Source of the DNA: Candidatus Ghiorseimicrobium undicola
GTDB lineage: Bacteria; Omnitrophota; Gorgyraeia; Ghiorseimicrobiales; Ghiorseimicrobiaceae
Direction: 5' to 3'
Assembly (NCBI GenBank): GCA_002796125.1
Contig: PCWA01000084.1
Coordinates: 3,238 to 67,237, forward strand
DNA: 64,000 nucleotides
In this document: positions 10,517 to 61,479 of the stretch, piece by piece
Layout of the letters: each line of letters begins with the position of its first letter
Numbering within the stretch: the first letter of the stretch is position 1
Notes under the pieces: model-generated
Database searches by the model: none
What the model was told of the DNA's origin: nothing
The model's input: the letters and a program-made list of their open reading frames with translations, nothing else
Made by a program: the position numbers and the translations under genes

Positions 10517-10529
10517 AATATTTTCAGCA

Positions 10530-10564
10530 ATTACACAAAACAAGCATTGCTTGTTTTGTGTAAT
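10530..10564 (-). repeat. 35-bp perfect palindrome between the hypothetical gene stop and the leuA start
   Basis: attacacaaaacaagca t tgcttgttttgtgtaat. A related copy lies upstream of metK. Confidence 0.6.
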
Positions 10565-10569
10565 TTTGA

Positions 10570-12501
10570 TTATAACCCTTCAACCGGGGTAAAAAAATCA
10601 AATTCGAAAAAACCATCCTCATACATGGAACTGGCGCCCATAACATTAACATCTTTTAAAACATTTAACACATCAACAGCATTCCGCATGTTTTTCCTGA
10701 TTTCTTTTTCTTTTAAATTATTCGCAAGAGAATTATTCATTGAACTAAATATTGCTATCATCGGCTCAATGTATTGCTTGGGATTAATATAAAAAAGCCC
10801 GTTAAACTCAGGATGCAATTTTGTTCTAATCTGGGAAAATTTTACGCTATCTACCAGGCTTAATAATTTCTTATTATACACGTTTATTATTTTTCTCAGA
10901 AGCGGTTGATTAGTACCTACTATCAAATAGTTGCCCAGGAAACAGTATGAGGGAGATAAAACATCATCGCTAAACATAGCCGGTAAAGTACCGGTATTCT
11001 GCATTTTTAACCCATGTATGCTAATGCCAGAATAGTCATCAACCGTATAAATAAGCATATCCGGAACTTTTTGTTCTTCTGTATCCGGCCCCGCCCCCTC
11101 CTGCACGGCCGGTAATTTTTGTTCCCTTGGCTTTGCCTGGCCACCCGCCTGAAGTTTCGCCTGGGCATTGGCTAAATCAGCTATTCTTTGCCAAAGTCCA
11201 GACAATAAAACATCTATCTTATCTTTGTCTTTTGTATCCGCATAAACAAATAATTCCGGAAAATTTAAATTAATCGGCCCGGCCCTGCCTTGCTCTAGCG
11301 CAAGCGGTATACTTATGGCTTTAAACCCGGCTAAAGTAAAACCGTAATCTTTCCCTAAAAAAGGCAAGAAATCATTTTCCAAATCAAAACCCAGGAATGA
11401 ATTCAATTGCTCAATAATCTTATCCGGGCTATACTCCTGCGCATTAATTTTTTCATTACTTGCGGCCTTATTAAGCACCGCCCCATTAATGACGCCTGAC
11501 ATACTCTTTTTAAAATAGGCAAACAATGATTTCGCCTGGCCGTAATTTCCTCCGGAAAATAAAGCAACATCTAAAGGGATAAATTTTAACGCCTCCAGAT
11601 TAGCATCGTTTATGCCTTCCCAAATAGTTTTTATCTCCGGGTCCTCTATGCTCTCGAGATCTAGATAAGCCCAGCCTTTTAAATAAATACCCTCATTAAA
11701 ATCAACCGTTAAAAAATAATTCTTAAACGGCGTGAGTTTCTCCTGAGCTTTATATATGGCTTTCATGTCCTGGCTTAAGTTTTTTGCCAGCTGATAAAAT
11801 TTACTCACATCATAATATAGCCATGCGCGCCAGCTGCCGGAAAACCTGCTTTTAACTCTTAAAAATCCTGGATCGCTGGAAATACTACCCTCAGAATCTG
11901 CGCCTATTAAATCTATGGCTTTTTCCAGCCTGCCCCTGGCATTACTTATTATAAGCACATCGCCTATGATGGAATAGGCAAACTCATGCCGTAAACCTTC
12001 ATGCTTAACAATAGAAACATCGAAACCTTTATATTTATTCCTTGTAATTAGTTTATCCTTCTGAATTTTGGAATTAATCTTTGCCAGCGACTCTTTAAGC
12101 GCAACCGAATTATCTATCCTGCTTAAGAGAACGATATCAACATCCGGCCTTTCAAACTTGGTATCTTCAGAATATACAGATAAAAAAACCTCCTTGCCTA
12201 AAACATCCATCAGGTCTTTTTCGCTAAGCCAATTTGCCTGCTCCTTTATTTTCCCAAAAGTATCATTATCCTTAAACATAAGAAGCTGCGCCAGGCCGGA
12301 GTAAACATCCGTGCCTTTTATCTTATCCCAGGAGCTTTTTAAATCATCCGCGGCAACATATATCAATCCTCCCGAAGGAGCTAAATCGGCAAGATTTTCC
12401 ACCTGAACCGGCGGCTTGGATAAACGCAGATAATAAAAAGCGGCTGTTAAAATTATAATAACGCCGCCGAGCAAAATGATAAGCTTTTTATTATTTCTCA
12501 T
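10570..12501 (-). CDS. Large hypothetical secreted/membrane-anchored protein (possibly DUF3352-like)
   Basis: 643 aa; N-terminal signal-anchor LIILLGGVIIILTAAFYYL; no catalytic motifs. Inserted between ilvC and leuA. Confidence 0.45.
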   Translation of the reverse strand: MRNNKKLIILLGGVIIILTAAFYYLRLSKPPVQVENLADLAPSGGLIYVAADDLKSSWDKIKGTDVYSGLAQLLMFKDNDTFGKIKEQANWLSEKDLMDVLGKEVFLSVYSEDTKFERPDVDIVLLSRIDNSVALKESLAKINSKIQKDKLITRNKYKGFDVSIVKHEGLRHEFAYSIIGDVLIISNARGRLEKAIDLIGADSEGSISSDPGFLRVKSRFSGSWRAWLYYDVSKFYQLAKNLSQDMKAIYKAQEKLTPFKNYFLTVDFNEGIYLKGWAYLDLESIEDPEIKTIWEGINDANLEALKFIPLDVALFSGGNYGQAKSLFAYFKKSMSGVINGAVLNKAASNEKINAQEYSPDKIIEQLNSFLGFDLENDFLPFLGKDYGFTLAGFKAISIPLALEQGRAGPINLNFPELFVYADTKDKDKIDVLLSGLWQRIADLANAQAKLQAGGQAKPREQKLPAVQEGAGPDTEEQKVPDMLIYTVDDYSGISIHGLKMQNTGTLPAMFSDDVLSPSYCFLGNYLIVGTNQPLLRKIINVYNKKLLSLVDSVKFSQIRTKLHPEFNGLFYINPKQYIEPMIAIFSSMNNSLANNLKEKEIRKNMRNAVDVLNVLKDVNVMGASSMYEDGFFEFDFFTPVEGL

Positions 12502-12552
12502 AGCCGTTCTCCTTATTCAGGCGAGGGAATCTAACGTTTCATCCAAGGCATC

Positions 12553-12647
12553 CAATTCGGCCGTAAAGGCCGAATTGTCCCGCAGCCTATCAGGGTAAAT
12601 TTCAAAGAAATTTACCCTGATGTTTAGGCAAGGGAATTTAGTGATTT
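12553..12647 (-). repeat. 5'-leader element, truncated variant copy D (leader of the 643-aa hypothetical gene), flanked by a 12-bp direct repeat
   Basis: Minus strand attcccttgcctaaacatcagggtaaatttctttgaaatttaccctgataggctgcgggacaattcggcctttacggccgaatt. The direct repeat atccaaggcatc occurs at 12541-12552 and 12648-12659. Confidence 0.7.
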
Positions 12648-13633
12648 ATCCAAGGCATCATCTCCCTCAGCCTCTTACCTACCTCCTCTATCGGGTGTTT
12701 ATCGCCCTCTTCCATCAATTTATTAAACAATGGCCTGCCCTGTTCGTTCTCATTAATCCACTCGCGGGCAAATTTACCGTTTTTAATTTCGCGAAGCATC
12801 TTCTGCATTTCTTTTCTCGTCTTTTGAGTTATTATTCTCGGTCCTCTGGTTAAATCCCCATAACATGCAGTGTTTGAAACACGCCTACGCATGCCTGATA
12901 TGCCGGTTTCCTGAATTAAATCAGTAATTAATTTTAATTCATGCAAAACTTCAAAATAGGCGATTTCCGGCTGATATCCCGCCTCTATCAAAGTATCAAA
13001 ACCTGCTTTGATAAGCTCGGTTACGCCGCCGCATAAAACCGCCTGTTCGCCGAAAAGATCCGTTTCTGTTTCTTCGTCAAATGTTGTTTCTATTACCCCC
13101 GCCTTTGTACCTTTTATTGCCTTGGCGTAAGCAAGCGCAACCGCTTTGGCATTACCGCTTGCATCCTGATGAATAGCCAAAAGGCATGGCACGCCCTTGT
13201 CTTCCTCATACATCCGCCTGACCAATGCACCCGGGCCTTTAGGCGCCACCATAATCACATCTACTTTTTTAGGCGGTTTAATCTGCTTAAAACGAATATT
13301 GAAACCGTGGGAAAAAACCAAAACTTTTCCTTTTTTAAGATAAGGCTTGATGGATTCGTTATAAACTTTTGCCTGGAGATGATCTTGAGTCAAAACCTGT
13401 ATAATATCCGCTTTTATTGCCGCCTCTTGAGCAGATACCGGGCTAAACCCGTCTTCTTCTGCCTGTTTAAAATTTTGCGTACCGGAAAGTTCAGAAACCA
13501 CCACATTAATACCGCTGTCGCGAAGGCACAGGCTCTGGCCCCTGCCCTGAATTCCGTAGCCGATAATCGCCACTGTCTTATCTTTTAATAAATTTAAATC
13601 CGCATCATTATCGTAGTAGATTTTTAAAGCCAT
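12638..13633 (-). CDS. ilvC: Ketol-acid reductoisomerase
   Basis: 331 aa; [17 protein letters not shown] Rossmann region and C-terminal KARI domain. Confidence 0.9.
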
Positions 13634-14150: not shown

Positions 14151-15808
14151 GCCATTCCACCCATCATTCTGTTTATTGCCTCCCCGGCAGGCACCATCGG
14201 AAAAACATTTTCTTCCGGCTCGACAATAAAATCAATCAAAACAGTGTTATCTATCGATATCGCCTTCTTTATCGCTGCAGCCACTTCTTCCTTTTTACTA
14301 ACACGGATACCAACCGCTCCATAGCTTTCAGCGAGCTTTACAAAATCAGGATTAATAAGTTTTGTTTGAGAATATCTGCGGTGATAAAATAACTGCTGCC
14401 ATTGTCTAACCATGCCCAGATATCCGTTATTCAATATTGCTATCTTAACCGGCAGCCTATTATTTACGGCTGTAGCCAACTCCTGGATATTCATTTGAAT
14501 AGAACCGTCCCCGGCTATATCAAACACCAATTTATCGGGCCTGCCGATTTGCGCTCCAATCGCGGCCGGAAAACCGTAACCCATAGTCCCCAAGCCTCCG
14601 CTTGAAATAAAAGTACGCGGTAAGCTGTATTTATACCACTGCGCCGCCCACATTTGGTTTTGGCCGACTTCCGTGGTAATTATAGCATCTCCTTTGGTTA
14701 ATTCATAAATCTTCTCCAATACAAATTGCGGCCGTATTTTATCGTCATTTTTATAACTTAACGGGTGTTTTTCTTTCCAATCAAAAACCTGCTTTAACCA
14801 ATCCTTACTCTCGCACGGATTAACCAGCTTATTTAGCTCGCTTAAAATATTTTTAGCATCCCCGACTATGGGAACATCAACTTTTACGTTTTTACTAATA
14901 GAAGAGGGGTCTATATCTATATGTATTATTTTCGCATGAGGCGCGAAAGCGTCAATACGCCCGGTCACCCTGTCGTCAAACCTTGCTCCTACGGCAATTA
15001 TCAAATCTGATTCCATTATGGCATAGTTGGCATAAGCCGTACCATGCATGCCGAGCATGCCTAAAGATAGATTATTTCTTTGATCAAAACCTCCCAAACC
15101 CATAAGGGTCGTCGTCACGGGAGCGTTTATTTTCTCAGACAGCTCTTTTAATTCATTATTCGCTCCGGAAATAATTATGCCTCCGCCTGCGTAAATTATA
15201 GGGCGCTTCGATTTGGCGATTAGCTTTACGGCTTTTTTAATCTGCCCGGGGTGCCCAAAATAAGTAGGATTGTAACTTCTGATGCGGCAAGTTTCAGGAT
15301 AGACGAAATCATGTTCAGCATTCTGTACATCAACAGGCAAGTCTATCAATACCGGCCCGGGCCTGCCGGTTGATGCGATATGAAAAGCCTCTTTTATGAT
15401 ACAAGCCAAATGCTTTACATCCTTTACCAAATAATTATGCTTGGTAATCGGCCGTGTTATGCCTGTAACATCCGCTTCCTGAAAAGCATCATTGCCTATT
15501 AACGTAGTCTTAACTTGCCCGGTAAAAGCAACCATGGGGATAGAATCCATGTATGCCGTCGCAATCCCCGTAATAAGATTGGTCGCTCCCGGGCCGCTTG
15601 TAGCAAGGCAAACGCCGGTTTTTCCGGTTACGCGGGCATAACCGTCTGCGGCATGGGCTGCCGCCTGTTCATGTCTGGTTAAAATAAACCTTATCTTCGC
15701 GTCATAAAGCTTATCGAATATAGGAAGGACAACCCCTCCCGGATAACCAAACATTACCTCAACATTTTCTTTAATTAAAGATTGTACGAATATCTCTGCG
15801 CCAGTCAT
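14147..15808 (-). CDS. ilvB: Acetolactate synthase large subunit (ThDP-dependent)
   Basis: 553 aa; [26 protein letters not shown]-terminus; GDG ThDP motif. Confidence 0.9.
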
Positions 15809-15811
15809 TTT

Positions 15812-15926
15812 AATGAGCCCACAACTTACGGAGGCGAAGCCGACGTAAGTTGTATGGGCGAATTAATCCCGCAGCCTATCGGGTAAATATCGAAGAGATT
15901 TACCCGATGCTTAGGCAAGGGATATT
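15812..15926 (-). repeat. 5'-leader structured repeat element, copy A (between ilvD stop and ilvB start)
   Basis: Minus strand atcccttgcctaagcatcgggtaaatctcttcgatatttacccgataggctgcgggattaattcgcccatacaacttacgtcggcttcgcctccgtaagttgtgggctcatt, followed by aaaATG of ilvB. Confidence 0.8.
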
Positions 15927-17579: not shown

Positions 17580-17712
17580 ATTTTTGCTCCTTAATCATCC
17601 CGCTTTCAACAGAAAGCCTAACTTACTCCTGGCGTAAACGCTTGTAGATTTCTTCTCGTAAGAGAAGAAATCTACTGCGCGCGCTTCGGAGCTAATCCCG
17701 CCTTCGGCGGGA

Positions 17713-19023
17713 TTAATCCGCCCCTGATGCGTCTATCTCTCCGGAATGAGAGTTGATATCCGGCTTTATATATACGGGCTTAATATATCTTTCGATAAGA
17801 TCTTTGCTGCCTGCAATGTTGAGCTTTTTAAATAAAAATTCAAATTTTTCTTCCAGCTCTTTCCCTATTCTTTCAAGTATATCATCGCCGAGATTCGTAA
17901 GTTCTTTTTTAAATGGCCCAAGCGCTTTTTTACGCGTTTTGTAAATAAATTGGTCTTCTGTTTCTGTCTCTTTTTTCTCAGACGCCAGATTCTCCTTAAG
18001 CCATGAATATATCTTATCTCTTAGACTTGCCGGAAAATGCCTGCTTTCAAAAATCATGTTCTGGAACTGAGTTGCTAAATGCACTTCCAGAGTCTCAACC
18101 TCCGGGAATTTACCAAAAGCATCGTCAGGCAAAGTTGATGCCCCGTGCTGTACCGCCCCGCCCATGCCGTATTTTGCGCGCGCGAGTTCCGATAGAGTTC
18201 TTAACGTTTCAAAATCAAGTTTAACCTTGGCGATACTGCCGTCAGGCAAAACCACCCCTCCGTGCGAAGTACCTGTCTGAACGCTTACCTTGCTAATGCC
18301 ATCAAGCCTGCCTGTCAACTCGTTATAACCAGACATAAAAGCTTCTAATTCTTCCGGGGTAGAGTTTGCGGTCCCTACTTCGCCTATCTCTCCTCCTATT
18401 GATACGGTAACACCCTTTGGCTGTATGCTCCGGATATATTTGGTAAGTTCAGCACACGACTCATAATTTAAGTGCTGTTCTTCTTTTTTATCCGGCTTGC
18501 TTAAATCTACCAAAGTAGAAGAATCTATGTCTATATTATAAAAACCTGAATCAACGGCTTCTTTGATTAACAGCTTAAGGCCATCTAATTCTTTTTTGGG
18601 GTTTTCTTTGTATTTTTTGGGATTTACTTGGGTATGGTCTGCCTGCACGAATATAGGCCCTCTATAACCCTCTTTTACGGCAGCGGCTAAACAAACCCCG
18701 CAATATTCTACCGGGCGCTGATCAGTATAGCCCATTTCGGATTTGGCAATTTCAAATATAAAAGCTCCGGCATTATTTTTCTTGGCGACCCTGATAATCG
18801 CACGCGCCAAAATATAAGTTAAGCCGCGTAGATTAATCGCCGGGACGGTAAATCCTGAAAATTCATTTCTGCCTCGCGCTTTATAAAAATCATGGATAGA
18901 AGCCGGATAAACCCCGGCATCTTTGGCCGCCTGCCAAATTTTTAAAAAATAATCTTTCTTTTTATTTATATCACCTTCTAAAATCAGATTTTTTACCAAA
19001 ACATCGATATTGTTACCTGCCAC
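17713..19023 (-). CDS. fba: Class II fructose-bisphosphate aldolase (long form)
   Basis: 436 aa; VQADHTQ and GTSHGGV class II aldolase motifs; GTG start preceded by GAGGAGG. Confidence 0.75.
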   Translation of the reverse strand: MAGNNIDVLVKNLILEGDINKKKDYFLKIWQAAKDAGVYPASIHDFYKARGRNEFSGFTVPAINLRGLTYILARAIIRVAKKNNAGAFIFEIAKSEMGYTDQRPVEYCGVCLAAAVKEGYRGPIFVQADHTQVNPKKYKENPKKELDGLKLLIKEAVDSGFYNIDIDSSTLVDLSKPDKKEEQHLNYESCAELTKYIRSIQPKGVTVSIGGEIGEVGTANSTPEELEAFMSGYNELTGRLDGISKVSVQTGTSHGGVVLPDGSIAKVKLDFETLRTLSELARAKYGMGGAVQHGASTLPDDAFGKFPEVETLEVHLATQFQNMIFESRHFPASLRDKIYSWLKENLASEKKETETEDQFIYKTRKKALGPFKKELTNLGDDILERIGKELEEKFEFLFKKLNIAGSKDLIERYIKPVYIKPDINSHSGEIDASGAD

Positions 19024-19037
19024 CTTAATACCTCCTC

Positions 19038-19160
19038 AATGAGCGCATAACTTACGGAAGCTCTGAAAGAGCGACGTAAGTTATTTGCGCGAATTGATCC
19101 CGCAGCCTATCGGGTAAATTTCGAATAAATTTACCCGATGCTTAGGCAAGGGATATATTT
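19038..19160 (-). repeat. 5'-leader structured repeat element, copy B (fba leader)
   Basis: Minus strand atcccttgcctaagcatcgggtaaatttattcgaaatttacccgataggctgcgggatcaattcgcgcaaataacttacgtcgctctttcagagcttccgtaagttatgcgctcatt, followed by gaggaggtattaaGGTG of fba. Confidence 0.8.
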
Positions 19161-19221
19161 TACAACTCAATGAGCACATCCGCCACAGGCGGATGAGTAC
19201 GAATTGATCTTCATTAATTAT

Positions 19222-22795: not shown

Positions 22796-22830
22796 ATTAC
22801 ACATTTTAAGCAATGCTTGTTTTGTGTAAT
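22796..22830 (-). repeat. Related imperfect palindrome between the nucleotidyltransferase stop and the metK start
   Basis: attacacattttaagca a tgcttgttttgtgtaat. The right arm is identical to that of the 10530-10564 copy. Confidence 0.55.
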
Positions 22831-22838
22831 TTTACTTG

Positions 22839-26503: not shown

Positions 26504-26600
26504 GTAGGTTACGAACACCCGCCCATTCCATTAAGGGCGGGGTGTAGTAGGTTACGAACACCCGCCCATTCCGCTAAGGGCGGGGTGTACGTAGATTACT
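26504..26600 (-). repeat. Tandem 43-nt GC-stem hairpin repeat (2.2 copies) between yvcK stop and ptsH start
   Basis: gtaggttacgaacacccgcccattccNNtaagggcggggtgta occurs twice in tandem plus a partial third unit. Each unit folds as cacccgccc / gggcggggtg. Confidence 0.7.
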
Positions 26601-28446: not shown

Positions 28447-28519
28447 AGCGGGAGACGGGCTTCGAACCCGCGACAACAACGTTGGCAACGTTGTGCTCTA
28501 CCAACTGAGCTACTCCCGC
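28447..28519 (-). tRNA. tRNA-Gly (anticodon GCC)
   Basis: Minus-strand GCGGGAGTAGCTCAGTTGGTAGAGCACAACGTTGCCAACGTTGTTGTCGCGGGTTCGAAGCCCGTCTCCCGCT. Cloverleaf with GTTCGAAG T-loop; no encoded CCA. Confidence 0.85.
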
Positions 28520-28631
28520 AAATTATTAAAAAGAGAAATTCTGACAAATCAAAAATTTATTGCCACCTAATTTCTAATCTCGATTTTCCAGTAAAATTCG
28601 CCTTAGATTCAATACAGCTTCAACCATCTAA

Positions 28632-28715
28632 TGCCGCGAGAGAGAGTTGAACTCTCAAGTCCTTGCGGACATTAGGTCCTAAGCCTAACGCGTATGCCAA
28701 TTCCGCCACCGCGGC
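28632..28715 (-). tRNA. tRNA-Leu (anticodon TAG), long variable arm
   Basis: Minus-strand GCCGCGGTGGCGGAATTGGCATACGCGTTAGGCTTAGGACCTAATGTCCGCAAGGACTTGAGAGTTCAACTCTCTCTCGCGGCA. The D-arm matches the canonical Leu GGCGGAATTGG; the ORF 28620..28808 is spurious. Confidence 0.8.
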
Positions 28716-28881
28716 AAATTTTTTAAAATCGCGTATGCCAATTCCGCCATCCGCCATTTTGTCAATAGCGCATAACGCATTGAAAATAGAAAATTGAGTA
28801 GACCGCAATTAAACTTATTATCTATTTTTTAATTTCTATTGCTCAATTGCTCTACAAATTTTTGCAGAGCAAAAATTTATG

Positions 28882-28954
28882 TGAGCCACCCGCGACTCGA
28901 ACGCGGCACACCCACCTTAAAAGGGTGGTGCTCTACCGGATGAGCTAGTGGCTC
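28882..28954 (-). tRNA. tRNA-Lys (anticodon TTT)
   Basis: Minus-strand GAGCCACTAGCTCATCCGGTAGAGCACCACCCTTTTAAGGTGGGTGTGCCGCGTTCGAGTCGCGGGTGGCTCA. Confidence 0.85.
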
Positions 28955-42712: not shown

Positions 42713-42962
42713 CAAAAAAAAATCCCGAAGATTCTCTTCGGGATTAAACAAATAAAGCTCTCTAAAATATTCCTCTGGCTTATGCCAAACCGATGGCTTT
42801 ATCTTCTCTCATCTAGACTTTACTATTGGCTCTGGAATCGCACCAGCTCTGTCCTGCTTTTTTAGCAAGACTCGTAGGCTTTCATCCGGCGTTAAAGGAA
42901 GCGCCGATGTGCGCATGCTGCGCAACTACCAGTCGGGAATTACACCCTGCCCCGAAGATTCA
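42713..42962 (-). promoter_or_regulatory. FMN riboswitch (RFN element) with intrinsic terminator, controlling the ribBA operon
   Basis: The minus-strand leader reads ...TCTTCGGGGCAGGGTGTAATTCCCGACTGGTAGT...GCCAATAGTAAAGTCTAGATGAGAGAAGATAA, a match to the conserved FMN aptamer core. It is followed by the hairpin AATCCCGAAGAGAATCTTCGGGATT plus T9 (42713-42745), then GAGG and the ribBA ATG. Confidence 0.85.
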
Positions 42963-42965
42963 ATA

Positions 42966-54831: not shown

Positions 54832-54967
54832 TTAATTAGTTAACGCTGAAAAAGCTATCCTATGCATTACGTATTGTAGTTGCTTGATTTATCAAGCCCA
54901 ATAAATTGGGCAACTACAGAGGTTTTTCAGTAAAAACTAAGGTTGCGTAAAATAAATTGTGTAAATT

Positions 54968-55145
54968 GCGGCGGATTAGCATGGCCGGCTTGGCCCGATT
55001 TCTCGCAGGGGCGCGCAATTTTCCCCGGTGTGGAAAATCGCGCTCCGCTACTCGGCCTCGCTCTGGCCGACAGGTAATCAAAGGCCAACCATGCCCGCTC
55101 GGCCTGCGTTAGGCCCTGCTCAAAATCAGGCCAAGGCGGCAGGTG
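54968..55145. other. GC-rich (~60% GC) structured non-coding block; candidate ncRNA or long structured 5' leader
   Basis: No ORF of 60 aa or more in any frame across 54832-55359. Stacked hairpins include gcgcgcaattttcc/ggaaaatcgcgc, cggcc-tcgctct-ggccg, ggccaacc..cggcc and gccctg..caggc. Confidence 0.35.
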
Positions 55146-55187: not shown

Positions 55188-55215
55188 TTGACAATCTTTT
55201 GTTTTCAAGTATACT
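55188..55215 (+). promoter_or_regulatory. Sigma70 promoter upstream of rpmB
   Basis: TTGACA (55188-55193), 16-nt spacer, TATACT (55210-55215). A divergent TTGTCA / TAGTAT pair sits on the other strand. Confidence 0.45.
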
Positions 55216-55244
55216 GTTACAAATAAAATTAACAATATAATTGT

Positions 55245-55356
55245 ATCCCTTGCCTAAACATCGGGTAAATCTCTTCGATATTTACCCGATAGGCTGCGGG
55301 ATTAATTCGGCCATAAAACTTACGTCGGCTCCGCCTCCGTAAGTTGTGGCCTCATT
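55245..55356 (+). repeat. 5'-leader structured repeat element, copy C (rpmB leader)
   Basis: atcccttgcctaaacatcgggtaaatctcttcgatatttacccgataggctgcgggattaattcggccataaaacttacgtcggctccgcctccgtaagttgtggcctcatt, followed by aaaATG of rpmB. Confidence 0.8.
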
Positions 55357-55359
55357 AAA

Positions 55360-55590
55360 ATGCCTAAAAGTTGCAAAATATGCGGAAAAACAGCAGTCTA
55401 CGGTAATAAAATTACCAGGCGAGGTATGGCAAGAAAAAAAGGCGGTGCCGGCCGTAAAATTACCGGTATAGCCCGCCGCTGTTTTACGCCAAACCTACAG
55501 AGAATAAAAGCCGTAATCTCAGGGAAAACCGAAAGAATTTACGCCTGCACAAAATGCATCAAAGCAGGCCTGGTCAGTAAAAAAATATAA
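55360..55590 (+). CDS. rpmB: 50S ribosomal protein L28
   Basis: 76 aa; bL28 zinc-ribbon type (CKICGK...CTKC). Confidence 0.85.
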   Translation: MPKSCKICGKTAVYGNKITRRGMARKKGGAGRKITGIARRCFTPNLQRIKAVISGKTERIYACTKCIKAGLVSKKI

Positions 55591-57366: not shown

Positions 57367-57419
57367 CTAAATTTATTTATCCGTTTTATTAGAATAATTT
57401 TGCCGGAGAAATAAATTTA

Positions 57420-57500
57420 CTCCGAAGCCTACGCAGTAAATTTCGAACCCTCTGGAGTTTTTTAAACTTTAGGAAGAAATTTACAAGTGTTTAGGCAAGG
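57420..57500 (-). repeat. Degenerate copy E of the 5'-leader element in the recJ leader
   Basis: Minus strand ..actccttgcctaaacacttgtaaatttcttcc...ttcgaaatttactgcgtaggcttcggagtaaattt. The ccttgcctaaaca start and gtaaat arms are retained. Confidence 0.4.
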
Positions 57501-57664
57501 AGTTAACTTATATCCTCGGCAACAAACCGTCGGAATGATTTTACCCCGTTAGAGATAAACTGCCGTAGGCGGCTGTCTAATAAAGAATAGTTTATTATCG
57601 CCTTTTGCTTTCATAAACTGCTTTTGCCGCAAATTAAACGCCTCACCGCCATCTCTAACGGGGT

Positions 57665-61205: not shown

Positions 61206-61479
61206 GTCAGTTAGACAACACTTGCGCAATACCTTATAAGCGCAAGGTGTATCAGTTAGGCAACACTTGCGCAATTTGCCGATCAGGCAACACCGGCGCA
61301 ATTCCTTTAAGCGCCGGGTGACATATAAGCGCGAGATGTAAAAACCCTCAAGGCACGGCGGCGCAATTTCCCAGCACGGAAACACTGGCGCAATACAATT
61401 AAGCGCCAGGTGTTAATTAAGCGCCGGCCGCCTTATAAGCGCGGGGTGTGTCAGTTAGGCGCTATTTATTTAAGCGCTT
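61206..61479 (-). repeat. Array of 4 or more GC-stem/AT-loop hairpins of identical architecture, between trpA stop and the M16 peptidase start
   Basis: Units of the form cacNNgcgc-aatNNNNNttaa-gcgcN'N'ggtg. Stems are acacttgcgc/gcgcaaggtgt (61218-61250), caccggcgc/gcgccgggtg (61290-61320) and cactggcgc/gcgccaggtgt (61382-61413), plus gcgc-tatttatttaa-gcgc (61459-61477). The direct-repeat heads (g/a)caacacNNgcgcaat occur four times. Confidence 0.7.

Follow-up and report, generated by a model that had tools for sequence, protein, structure and literature searches.

Paired hairpins in front of Omnitrophota genes are probably copies of a modular, co-transcribed interspersed repeat

A 64-kb stretch of the genome of Candidatus Ghiorseimicrobium undicola (contig PCWA01000084.1, positions 3,238 to 67,237; hereafter the window, to which all unprefixed coordinates refer) carries several copies of a structured non-coding element that is built from two irregular hairpins. 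These elements belong to a previously undescribed family that is restricted to Candidatus Omnitrophota. We consider that they are probably new, modular, small non-coding interspersed repeats, similar in kind to BIME and BOX elements, and probably transcribed together with neighbouring genes, in leaders or between cistrons. Omnitrophota bacteria are uncultivated and for the most part ultra-small, and to our knowledge nothing has been known about their non-coding DNA. The original prediction, made from the window alone, had offered two alternatives for the element. The idea of a structured mobile cassette is supported in outline by the data presented below, whereas that of a shared cis-regulatory leader or riboswitch-like element is not, because the downstream genes are unrelated, the same spacers are element-free in relatives, and units come and go between near-identical strains.

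The basic unit consists of a hairpin termed P1 followed by a second hairpin, which in this lineage is the module H. P1 can be summarised as (T)ATCCC-TT-GCCT-AAAC-(variable stem, triloop)-(G/A)T-AGGC-TGC-GGGAT and forms a 60-nt hairpin in three tiers, in which an outer stem, (TA)TCCC/GGGA(TA), an internal loop, TT/TGC, and the stem GCCT/AGGC are followed further in by a second internal loop, AAAC/(G or A)T, a variable 11-bp stem and a small apical stem with a triloop. H runs from AATTCG through helix P3, an A-rich internal loop, helix P2 (ACTTACG/CGTAAGT), a UC/UC loop, helix P2b and a triloop to CTCATT, and its AATTCG and CTCATT flanks pair with one another as the interrupted base of the stem. 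The ends of the unit, TATCCCTTGCC... and ...GGCCTCATT, are not inverted repeats, each hairpin being internal to its own half. For the copy in the rpmB leader (copy C), the predicted RNA fold has a free energy of -49.8 kcal/mol in the sense orientation (z -6.4) and of -54.7 kcal/mol in the antisense orientation (z -8.6). A CCUCC in the P2 loop of copies A and C had been likened to an anti-Shine-Dalgarno sequence; the motif is present in both copies but missing from copy B and from the orthologous copy at locus L058 of a relative, and it was set aside as a by-product of the covarying apical mini-helix P2b (GGC/GCC) beside the UC/UC internal loop. The ribosomal RNA (rrn) antitermination signal boxA reads GCUCUUUAA. 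A likeness between 'hairpin + GCUCAUUAA' and the rrn boxB/boxA arrangement was considered and not adopted; in H, CTCATT is the pairing partner of AATTCG at the foot of the stem, and the bases in front of it vary.

We built a covariance model of P1 and searched the window with the filters off, which yielded six P1 copies, three of them with a trailing H module; in addition, there is one H module that stands alone. The outer P1 pattern, CCTTGCCTAA-N25-45-TAGGCTGCGG, occurs four times in the window and the P2 pattern, AACTTACG-N-CGTAAGTT, three times, against 0.00 expected from shuffles in both cases. The copies lie at the gene pairs ilvD/ilvB, pfkA/class II aldolase-like, ilvC/DUF3352 and argS/recJ and at rpmB, and the sequences of the copies originally described were present at, or within a few nucleotides of, their predicted positions at the five places checked. 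The calls of ilvB, rpmB (L28) and recJ were likewise confirmed. The gene predicted as fba shows only a weak class II aldolase match here, although its orthologues do carry PF01116, and the gene described as hypothetical corresponds to DUF3352 in relatives.

Three copies show the complete P1-H arrangement. Copy A lies on the minus strand between ilvD and ilvB: its P1 (15865-15924, minus strand; 87.9 bits) begins 2 nt past the ilvD stop codon, and its H (15812-15864, minus strand) is followed by aaa and the ilvB ATG (15806-15808), without a Shine-Dalgarno sequence. The homology alignment of IlvB starts at residue 1. Copy C, in the 5' leader of rpmB, has its P1 at 55244-55303 (plus strand; 89.2 bits) and its H with an aaa tail at 55304-55359 (plus strand), directly adjoining the rpmB ATG at 55360; the copy itself was thus correctly recognised and its coordinates are amended to 55244-55359. 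It lacks a Shine-Dalgarno sequence as well, and the tail ctcattaaaATG is shared with ilvB, as had been noted. In copy B (P1 at 19096-19155, minus strand, 82.6 bits; H at 19038-19095, minus strand), H is followed by a Shine-Dalgarno sequence, gaggagg, and the GTG start codon (19021-19023) of the class II aldolase-like gene. The solitary H module, F (AATTCG-tac..atccgcc-tgtg-gcggat..gtg-CTCATT; 19169-19205, minus strand), follows pfkA and stands in tandem upstream of copy B.

The remaining copies depart from this plan. Copy D is the caggg/ccctg variant of P1 (12576-12637, minus strand; 75.1 bits) and is situated directly past the ilvC stop codon, with a tail (12516-12575, minus strand) in which a short hairpin, aattcggcc-tttac-ggccgaatt, takes the place of H and is followed by a duplicated fragment, aaggag and an ATG at 12501. 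A direct duplication of 37 nt (12516-12552 and 12623-12659), comprising the last ilvC codons and the first ~15 nt of P1, flanks copy D and resembles a scar such as tandem duplication, or recombination of one P1 copy with another, would leave. Copy E (57418-57504, minus strand; 54.7 bits), in the argS-recJ spacer, is a P1 of the CTCC/GGAG subtype with an insertion of ~31 nt in its apical part and no H module. Copy G, a sixth copy absent from the original prediction, belongs to the same subtype (17624-17693, plus strand; 35.7 bits, E 8e-8) and is followed by a short GC hairpin, ATCCCGCC-TTCG-GCGGGAT (17695-17713, plus strand), whose end overlaps the stop codon of an aldolase-like gene on the other strand. 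The claim that every copy is in the sense orientation is therefore not strictly true, as copy G is antisense to the aldolase-like and ilvD genes on either side of it.

When 185,579 species were scanned, each represented by one genome, nine matches were returned; the three that have a hairpin between the arms all belong to metagenome-assembled genomes of Candidatus Omnitrophota. A scan of metagenomes returned 40 matches, 20 of them structured, and the viral contigs scanned contained no copies. That the element corresponds to no named riboswitch or leader family was upheld by a search of Rfam at both gathering and permissive thresholds, in which nothing matched at gathering scores and the best E-values were about 1; a similarity to the Rfam algC motif was dropped (15.8 bits against a cut-off of 33.8). 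A full-text literature search found no description of such elements in Omnitrophota. We counted 42 P1 matches in 212 kb of Omnitrophota loci, these loci having been chosen for carrying the pattern. An unbiased density is given by the window, with six P1 copies in 64 kb, together with a further 20 kb of same-strain flanks, which hold none, and amounts to about one copy per 14 kb in this genome. By comparison, there were no P1 matches in 58 kb from four rpmB-syntenic relatives and a single one in 70 kb from four ilv-syntenic relatives. The family has expanded in particular lineages.

The modules are combined in many ways. Besides P1 with H, we observed H alone (19169-19205), P1 with a different short hairpin (copy D), P1 alone (copy E) and the series H-spacer-P1-H. 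Four loci (L016, L026, L032 and L036) share a composite of P1, the module S, an inverted P1 of the GCTT/AAGC subtype and H, while in L031 and L040 units are nested inside the H of another unit (P1-H'-P1-H''), and H-P1-H composites occur too. A comparison of two strains at the same locus, the S19-L22 spacer, captures one such change: L032 carries, relative to L013, an extra S+P1 unit of 85 nt inserted exactly between GCTGCGGG and AT(T)AATTCG, without a target duplication, in flanks that are 99-100% identical. The genes downstream of the elements are unrelated to one another and include ilvB, the aldolase gene, those for L28, DUF3352, recJ, L22, S10, groES, groEL, gap, tpi, pheT, phoU and moxR. 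In the groES leader (L010 656-785, an Omnitrophota contig) a CIRCE-like inverted repeat (ttagcactc-N9-gagtgctaa) precedes P1, so that a heat-shock operator and the repeat share one leader, and a second P1 lies between groES and groEL.

Orthologous spacers in relatives tell the same story of gain and loss. Upstream of rpmB, the element is absent from all four relatives compared (61-75% L28 identity), which keep both the promoter (TTGACA-N16/17-TATACT) and the Shine-Dalgarno sequence. The argS-recJ spacer measures 2-4 nt in three relatives as against ~300 nt here with copy E, and the ilvC-DUF3352 spacer 0-36 nt as against 136 nt here with copy D, while the pfkA-aldolase spacer is occupied by a response-regulator gene in L058 and L059. 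Between ilvD and ilvB, L058 carries P1-H, L060 an H module with a simple hairpin before it, and L059 A/T-rich filler only. Furthermore, the paralogous copies A and C are 95.8% identical (95% over 122 nt), whereas copy A and its L058 orthologue are only 73% identical, a pattern suggestive of concerted evolution in which paralogues are homogenised within a genome. Other lineage-specific material was seen in the same spacers of relatives, namely A/T-rich low-complexity runs of the type 'aaagtaaaaag' (L059 8062-8214 and 9866-10001), 'aaattcgaaat' hairpins (L061 5688-5889) and a long 'accagataccag' hairpin (L058 8117-8230). Intergenic spacers with such lineage-specific filler seem to be general landing or expansion sites.

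The helices of both modules are preserved by compensatory changes. The variants initially reported, cggg/cccg versus caggg/ccctg in P1 and gccca/tgggc, ggcca/tggcc and gcgca/tgcgc in P3, were found as described. Across 41 distinct P1 copies from several species, 92.6% of the cells are paired, compared with 31-53% after sliding the partners; both sides have changed in 18 of 23 pairs, the observed covariation score was reached by no shuffle, and 134 cells with double changes stand against seven with one-sided changes, counts which overstate the number of independent events because the copies share ancestry and were aligned by fitting them to the model. The stem GCCT/AGGC is exchanged for GCGT/ACGC, GCTT/AAGC or GCAT/ATGC, the outer stem TCCC/GGGA for CTCC/GGAG or CCCC/GGGG, and the inner stem exists in more than ten versions. 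H behaves similarly, with 94.4% pairing in 18 copies (25-43% when slid) and double changes in 10 of 20 pairs.

These larger sets uphold the claim that changes preserve the helices, but not the further step of taking them as the signature of an RNA fold as opposed to a DNA palindrome. Nearly all pairs are of the Watson-Crick type: among 918 cells there are nine G-U and eight A-C wobbles (about 1%), without strand asymmetry and without the surplus of wobbles that is usual in structures of transcribed RNA. An assignment of the strand by means of wobble pairs was attempted and gave no signal (9 versus 8). Because wobbles are this rare and equal on both strands, covariation does not separate DNA from RNA hairpins. 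The apical loop reads C-TNC-G in 21 of the 31 copies with a short apical loop (N being T in 13, A in four, C in three and G in one), the complement of which is C-GNA-G; d(C-GNA-G) is a DNA mini-hairpin of unusual stability. As a hint of a DNA hairpin the loop is not decisive, since two copies, those of L058 and L036:1806, have inverted tips. Taken together, the purity of Watson-Crick pairing, the inverted tips and the C-TNC-G loop are more easily reconciled with a DNA palindrome than with a fold of RNA alone.

The original prediction also held that the copies are placed in the sense orientation directly upstream of start codons. This is mostly so, but does not apply to every copy: relative to the downstream protein gene, 32 non-redundant P1 copies are sense and nine antisense (binomial p = 4e-4). 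The orientation is thus not random, as would be the mark of a miniature inverted-repeat transposable element (MITE) or REP sequence, and a reading as purely decayed MITEs is therefore also too simple. Five of the nine antisense copies are the inverted P1 of composites that open with a sense P1, three immediately follow tRNA genes (tRNA-Lys in L001, tRNA-Ser in L041, and between tRNA-Pro and tRNA-Arg in L048), and the last is copy G with its small hairpin over the aldolase-like stop codon; a copy in L025 that converges on tRNA-Leu was scored as ambiguous. In both orientations it is the end with the second hairpin that touches a gene, meeting the start codon when sense and the 3' end of a tRNA or protein gene when antisense. 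The window represents one replichore with the minus strand leading; four of its six P1 copies are on the minus strand, and all but copy G (five of six) follow the direction of their gene. Copy C, which lies with its gene on the plus strand against the local strand trend, makes gene direction a slightly better predictor of orientation than replication direction, in a small sample of six copies.

P1 lies 45-75 nt from the start codon. At least ten genes have their ATG 2-3 nt past CTCATT and no Shine-Dalgarno sequence, the N-termini of IlvB, L28, S10 and L22 being verified by homology. After the remaining third of the H modules, CTCATT is followed by a normal Shine-Dalgarno sequence, AAGGAGG. Since element-free relatives have a Shine-Dalgarno sequence at rpmB and ilvB, insertion has displaced it there. 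Such starts are less exceptional than they might appear, because only 21 of the 55 long open reading frames in the window carry a Shine-Dalgarno-like tetramer, against a background of 4%.

It had been proposed, from A/T hexamers in front of the copies, that the element begins at or near a transcription start. This is not supported. Copies A and D start 0-3 nt past the stop codon of the preceding ilv-operon gene, and their hexamers overlap the stop-codon region of that upstream gene of the same operon. Copy C starts 28 nt downstream of the -10 box of the rpmB promoter (TTGACA-16-TATACT; 55188-55215, plus strand), which is conserved in element-free relatives and lies outside the repeat. A promoter scan inside the elements detected only weak 9/12 matches, which face outwards on the antisense strand, and a promoter within the element, or a start at its 5' edge, was rejected given that the conserved rpmB promoter lies upstream of copy C. 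From the positions of the promoter and of the stop codons, it seems that transcription must enter the copies from outside, making them internal segments of mRNAs. Upstream of the same promoter, a GC-rich non-coding block of ~200 nt (54941-55141; ~60% G+C by eye, versus 41% for the window) separates rpmB from a pcrA-like gene and adjoins a strong divergent promoter-like site (55208-55180, minus strand; 11/12 matches). The block has no Rfam match, is 85% identical to L027:1-204, where it follows pheT, and does not occur in the corresponding spacer of three relatives. It may represent an uncharacterised small RNA or a further mobile segment.

We propose that a repeat of this kind would spread at the DNA level, by an activity on hairpin or cruciform DNA, and that homologous recombination or gene conversion would then homogenise the copies within a genome. 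The insertion and loss of units without terminal inverted repeats or target duplications, together with the pairing, tip and loop features that favour a DNA palindrome, suggest an HUH/Y1-type mechanism, as in RAYTs and the TnpA of IS200/IS605. Because the element settles in short intergenic spacers, it would be transcribed within 5' leaders or intercistronic RNA, and the orientation bias may reflect selection on the effect of the transcribed hairpins on the mRNA. The tolerated orientation would be the one that causes no termination and leaves an A/U-rich, unstructured CUCAUUAAA-AUG start region able to work without a Shine-Dalgarno sequence. By analogy with REP/BIME, ERIC, Correia and BOX elements, a secondary role as a 5' or intercistronic stabiliser or processing site is likely.

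Several observations weigh against this interpretation. Mobility is read from patterns of presence and absence rather than seen directly, and a phmmer search of 340 kb of Omnitrophota DNA with a Y1-transposase query (IS200 TnpA) gave no match, a weak test that covers a small fraction of the genomes. The repeat itself served to retrieve most of the loci, and the copies share descent, so that neither the covariation nor the orientation counts are independent events. The ilvD-ilvB spacer of L058 (84% IlvB identity) carries P1-H at the same position as copy A; that copy differs in having GCAT/ATGC, in its inner stem and in the inversion of its hairpin tip, and yet all helices are kept through compensatory changes. 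Some copies are therefore old and possibly functional. Finally, the orientation bias, the abutment on start codons and the conservation of internal loops throughout the phylum exceed what would be expected of a purely selfish repeat and leave room for a conserved trans-acting partner, be it protein or RNA.

We therefore weighed readings in which the element does something for its host. One of these, a dedicated cis-acting RNA leader (a riboswitch or the site of one global RNA-binding regulator) that governs translation across a regulon spanning biosynthesis, glycolysis, ribosomes and repair, would account for the sense orientation of 32 of 41 copies, the distance of 45-75 nt between P1 and the start codon, the covarying stems flanked by conserved internal loops, the strong predicted fold (z -6.4) and the preservation of all helices in the orthologous L058 copy. 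We nevertheless regard it as unlikely. The downstream genes have no function in common, the same leaders are element-free in relatives that retain promoter and Shine-Dalgarno sequence, and whole units are gained or lost between near-identical strains; antisense copies lie beside tRNA genes and within an operon, paralogues are more alike than orthologues, wobble pairs are as rare as they are symmetrical, the antisense strand folds at least equally well (-54.7 kcal/mol), and there is no Rfam match. Another reading is a portable leader or translation cassette, in which the repeat has been domesticated. Here the tail of H (hairpin + CUCAUUAAA-AUG) would provide Shine-Dalgarno-independent initiation, or an RNase site giving rise to near-leaderless mRNAs and trimmed tRNA trailers. 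The ten or more independent genes that start just past CTCATT, the Shine-Dalgarno sequences of the element-free rpmB and ilvB orthologues, the ilvB gene of L058, which shares the arrangement lacking one, and the antisense H ends 0-35 nt from tRNA 3' ends all agree with it. However, starts of this type are common in the window anyway, and normal Shine-Dalgarno sequences follow a third of the H modules; we hold this reading, too, to be unlikely. A more far-reaching version, a self-spreading mobile leader cassette whose hairpins are recognised by a phylum-specific factor, whose H tail replaces the Shine-Dalgarno sequence and whose reversed unit marks tRNA 3' ends, is somewhat speculative and on balance rather unlikely. 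The factor would be a hairpin-DNA transposase or recombinase of an undescribed type, or an RNA-binding or processing protein, and, if this were true, the H tail would set the translation or processing of any gene in front of which it had landed.

Two further explanations were considered. Bidirectional terminators or insulators, with the bias reflecting which strand terminates, are very unlikely. Antisense copies do lie directly behind tRNA genes and the aldolase-like gene, the second hairpin of some species is flanked by A- and T-runs (AAAATTTT...AAAATTTT), and, read antisense, the P1 of copy A runs into TATTTTATT. Terminator scans of both strands, however, flagged none of the elements, the tRNA-adjacent copies have no U-tract after P1, and a terminator would be lethal or polar where sense copies are found, within the operons ilvD-ilvB, S19-L22 and groES-groEL and between promoter and start codon of rpmB; for the sense orientation the reading was rejected on the strength of these scans. 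The layout of P1, in which an unpaired spacer separates the outer stem from a conserved inner stem and a variable stem forms the tip, also recalls the attC sites of integrons, whose cores read RYYYAAC ... GTTRRRY. Together with the nearly pure Watson-Crick pairing and the similarity of GCCTAAAC ... GTAGGC to these cores, this led us to consider site-specific recombination sites, attC-like or other, that fold as single-stranded DNA with the neighbouring genes as cassettes. Such an origin appears extremely improbable. Each core is off by one nucleotide, as GCCTAA(A/G)C has an extra A and (G/A)TAGGC lacks the TT of the crossover point; the flanking genes are core housekeeping genes whose synteny is conserved in eight relatives; and there is no integrase in the window, the element being found upstream of genes and not in an array beside attI.

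The window contains other structured features. In the intergenic region at 26504-26589, two tandem units of 43 nt, GTAGGTTACGAACACCCGCCC-loop-GGGCGGGGTGTA, each consist of a GTAG motif followed by a GC-rich hairpin and have a REP-like look. At 61215-61460, four or five similar hairpin units, CACYKGCGCAAT-N5-7-TAAGCGC..GTG, form a separate local repeat family. A near-perfect palindrome of 36 nt, AATTACACAAAACAAGCATTGCTTGTTTTGTGTAATT, occurs at two loci (10529-10567 and 22796-22833; 87-89% alike), in each case right past a gene end and with A/T runs on both sides, which gives it the look of a bidirectional terminator. The Rfam scan also located a flavin mononucleotide (FMN) riboswitch (42797-42963, minus strand; 95.6 bits) and three tRNA genes (28447-28954, minus strand).

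Small, streamlined-looking Omnitrophota genomes thus carry an actively turning-over mosaic repeat, which occupies the leaders of essential genes (rpmB, rpsJ, groESL, ilvB) and can displace the Shine-Dalgarno sequence of an essential gene. The repeat also breaks short-read metagenome assemblies of this organism: the contigs L052:1 and L053:1, from metagenomes and from the strain of the window, begin inside the P1 of the rpmB copy. The strong covariation of the element could lead to its being mistaken for a riboswitch-like motif in annotation. Should the orientation bias and the abutment on start codons prove functional, it would be a natural portable 5' leader and give access to translation initiation and mRNA processing in a phylum for which genetic methods are lacking.

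Among known families, the closest parallels in lifestyle are small extragenic repeats. REP/BIME, BOX, ERIC and Correia elements are documented to attenuate transcription, to stabilise mRNA, to be cleaved by RNase E or RNase III depending on orientation, and to stimulate or inhibit the genes that follow them (PMC3049150). Like the REP sequences of Enterobacteria and Pseudomonas, which are associated with RAYTs and form REPINs and BIMEs, the Omnitrophota elements are high-copy extragenic hairpins that would be co-transcribed in intercistronic or 3' positions, have neither terminal inverted repeats nor target duplications, carry a GTAG-containing motif by the stem and have homogenised paralogues; the mosaic clusters of alternating orientation in BIMEs compare with P1-S-P1(inverted)-H. 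They differ in that P1 is a three-tier hairpin of 60 nt rather than an imperfect palindrome of 20-40 nt, in that the 3' arm of P1 contains the GTAG (ATAG in the window), which in REP sequences precedes the stem on its 5' side, in their strong sense bias and abutment on start codons, and in that no RAYT was identified with the IS200 TnpA query in the 340 kb searched. The boxA, boxB and boxC modules of Streptococcus pneumoniae BOX elements resemble them in their variable number, their position near gene starts, their presumed transcription without translation and their stable stem-loops. BOX modules stimulate or inhibit downstream expression according to orientation (PMC3049150). Unlike the present elements, BOX elements have terminal inverted repeats and target duplications (PMC3049150), no sequence similarity was noted, and they belong to another phylum.

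ERIC (IRU) and Correia (NEMIS) elements are likewise intergenic repeats of 100-150 nt with long imperfect hairpins that are inserted in operons, and they exert orientation-dependent effects on mRNA through RNase E or RNase III cleavage (PMC3049150). Each of them is, however, a single long palindrome with inverted-repeat ends, and Correia elements duplicate TA upon insertion, whereas the units described here comprise two distinct, non-complementary hairpin modules without such ends. Classical MITEs differ by the terminal inverted repeats and the target-site duplication, neither of which is seen here. The miniature elements of IS200/IS605 (PATEs) share with our units a different subterminal hairpin at each end (here P1, and H or S), the lack of terminal inverted repeats and target duplications, and strand-specific behaviour. 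They differ in that no conserved target tetranucleotide is evident here 5' of the left end, where the bases before P1 vary (..caa, ..aaa, ..ata, ..ttg), and in that no TnpA/TnpB partner was found in the 340 kb with this weak query. Finally, attC sites are likewise imperfect hairpins that combine conserved outer boxes with unpaired bases and a variable stem at the end, and their cores are each missed here by one nucleotide. As the elements have no 5' GTAG with a short palindrome, inverted-repeat ends, target duplication or attC cores, they are members of none of these. The element shares the lifestyle of REP/BIME, BOX, ERIC and Correia repeats, and it is a new family outside all named ones.

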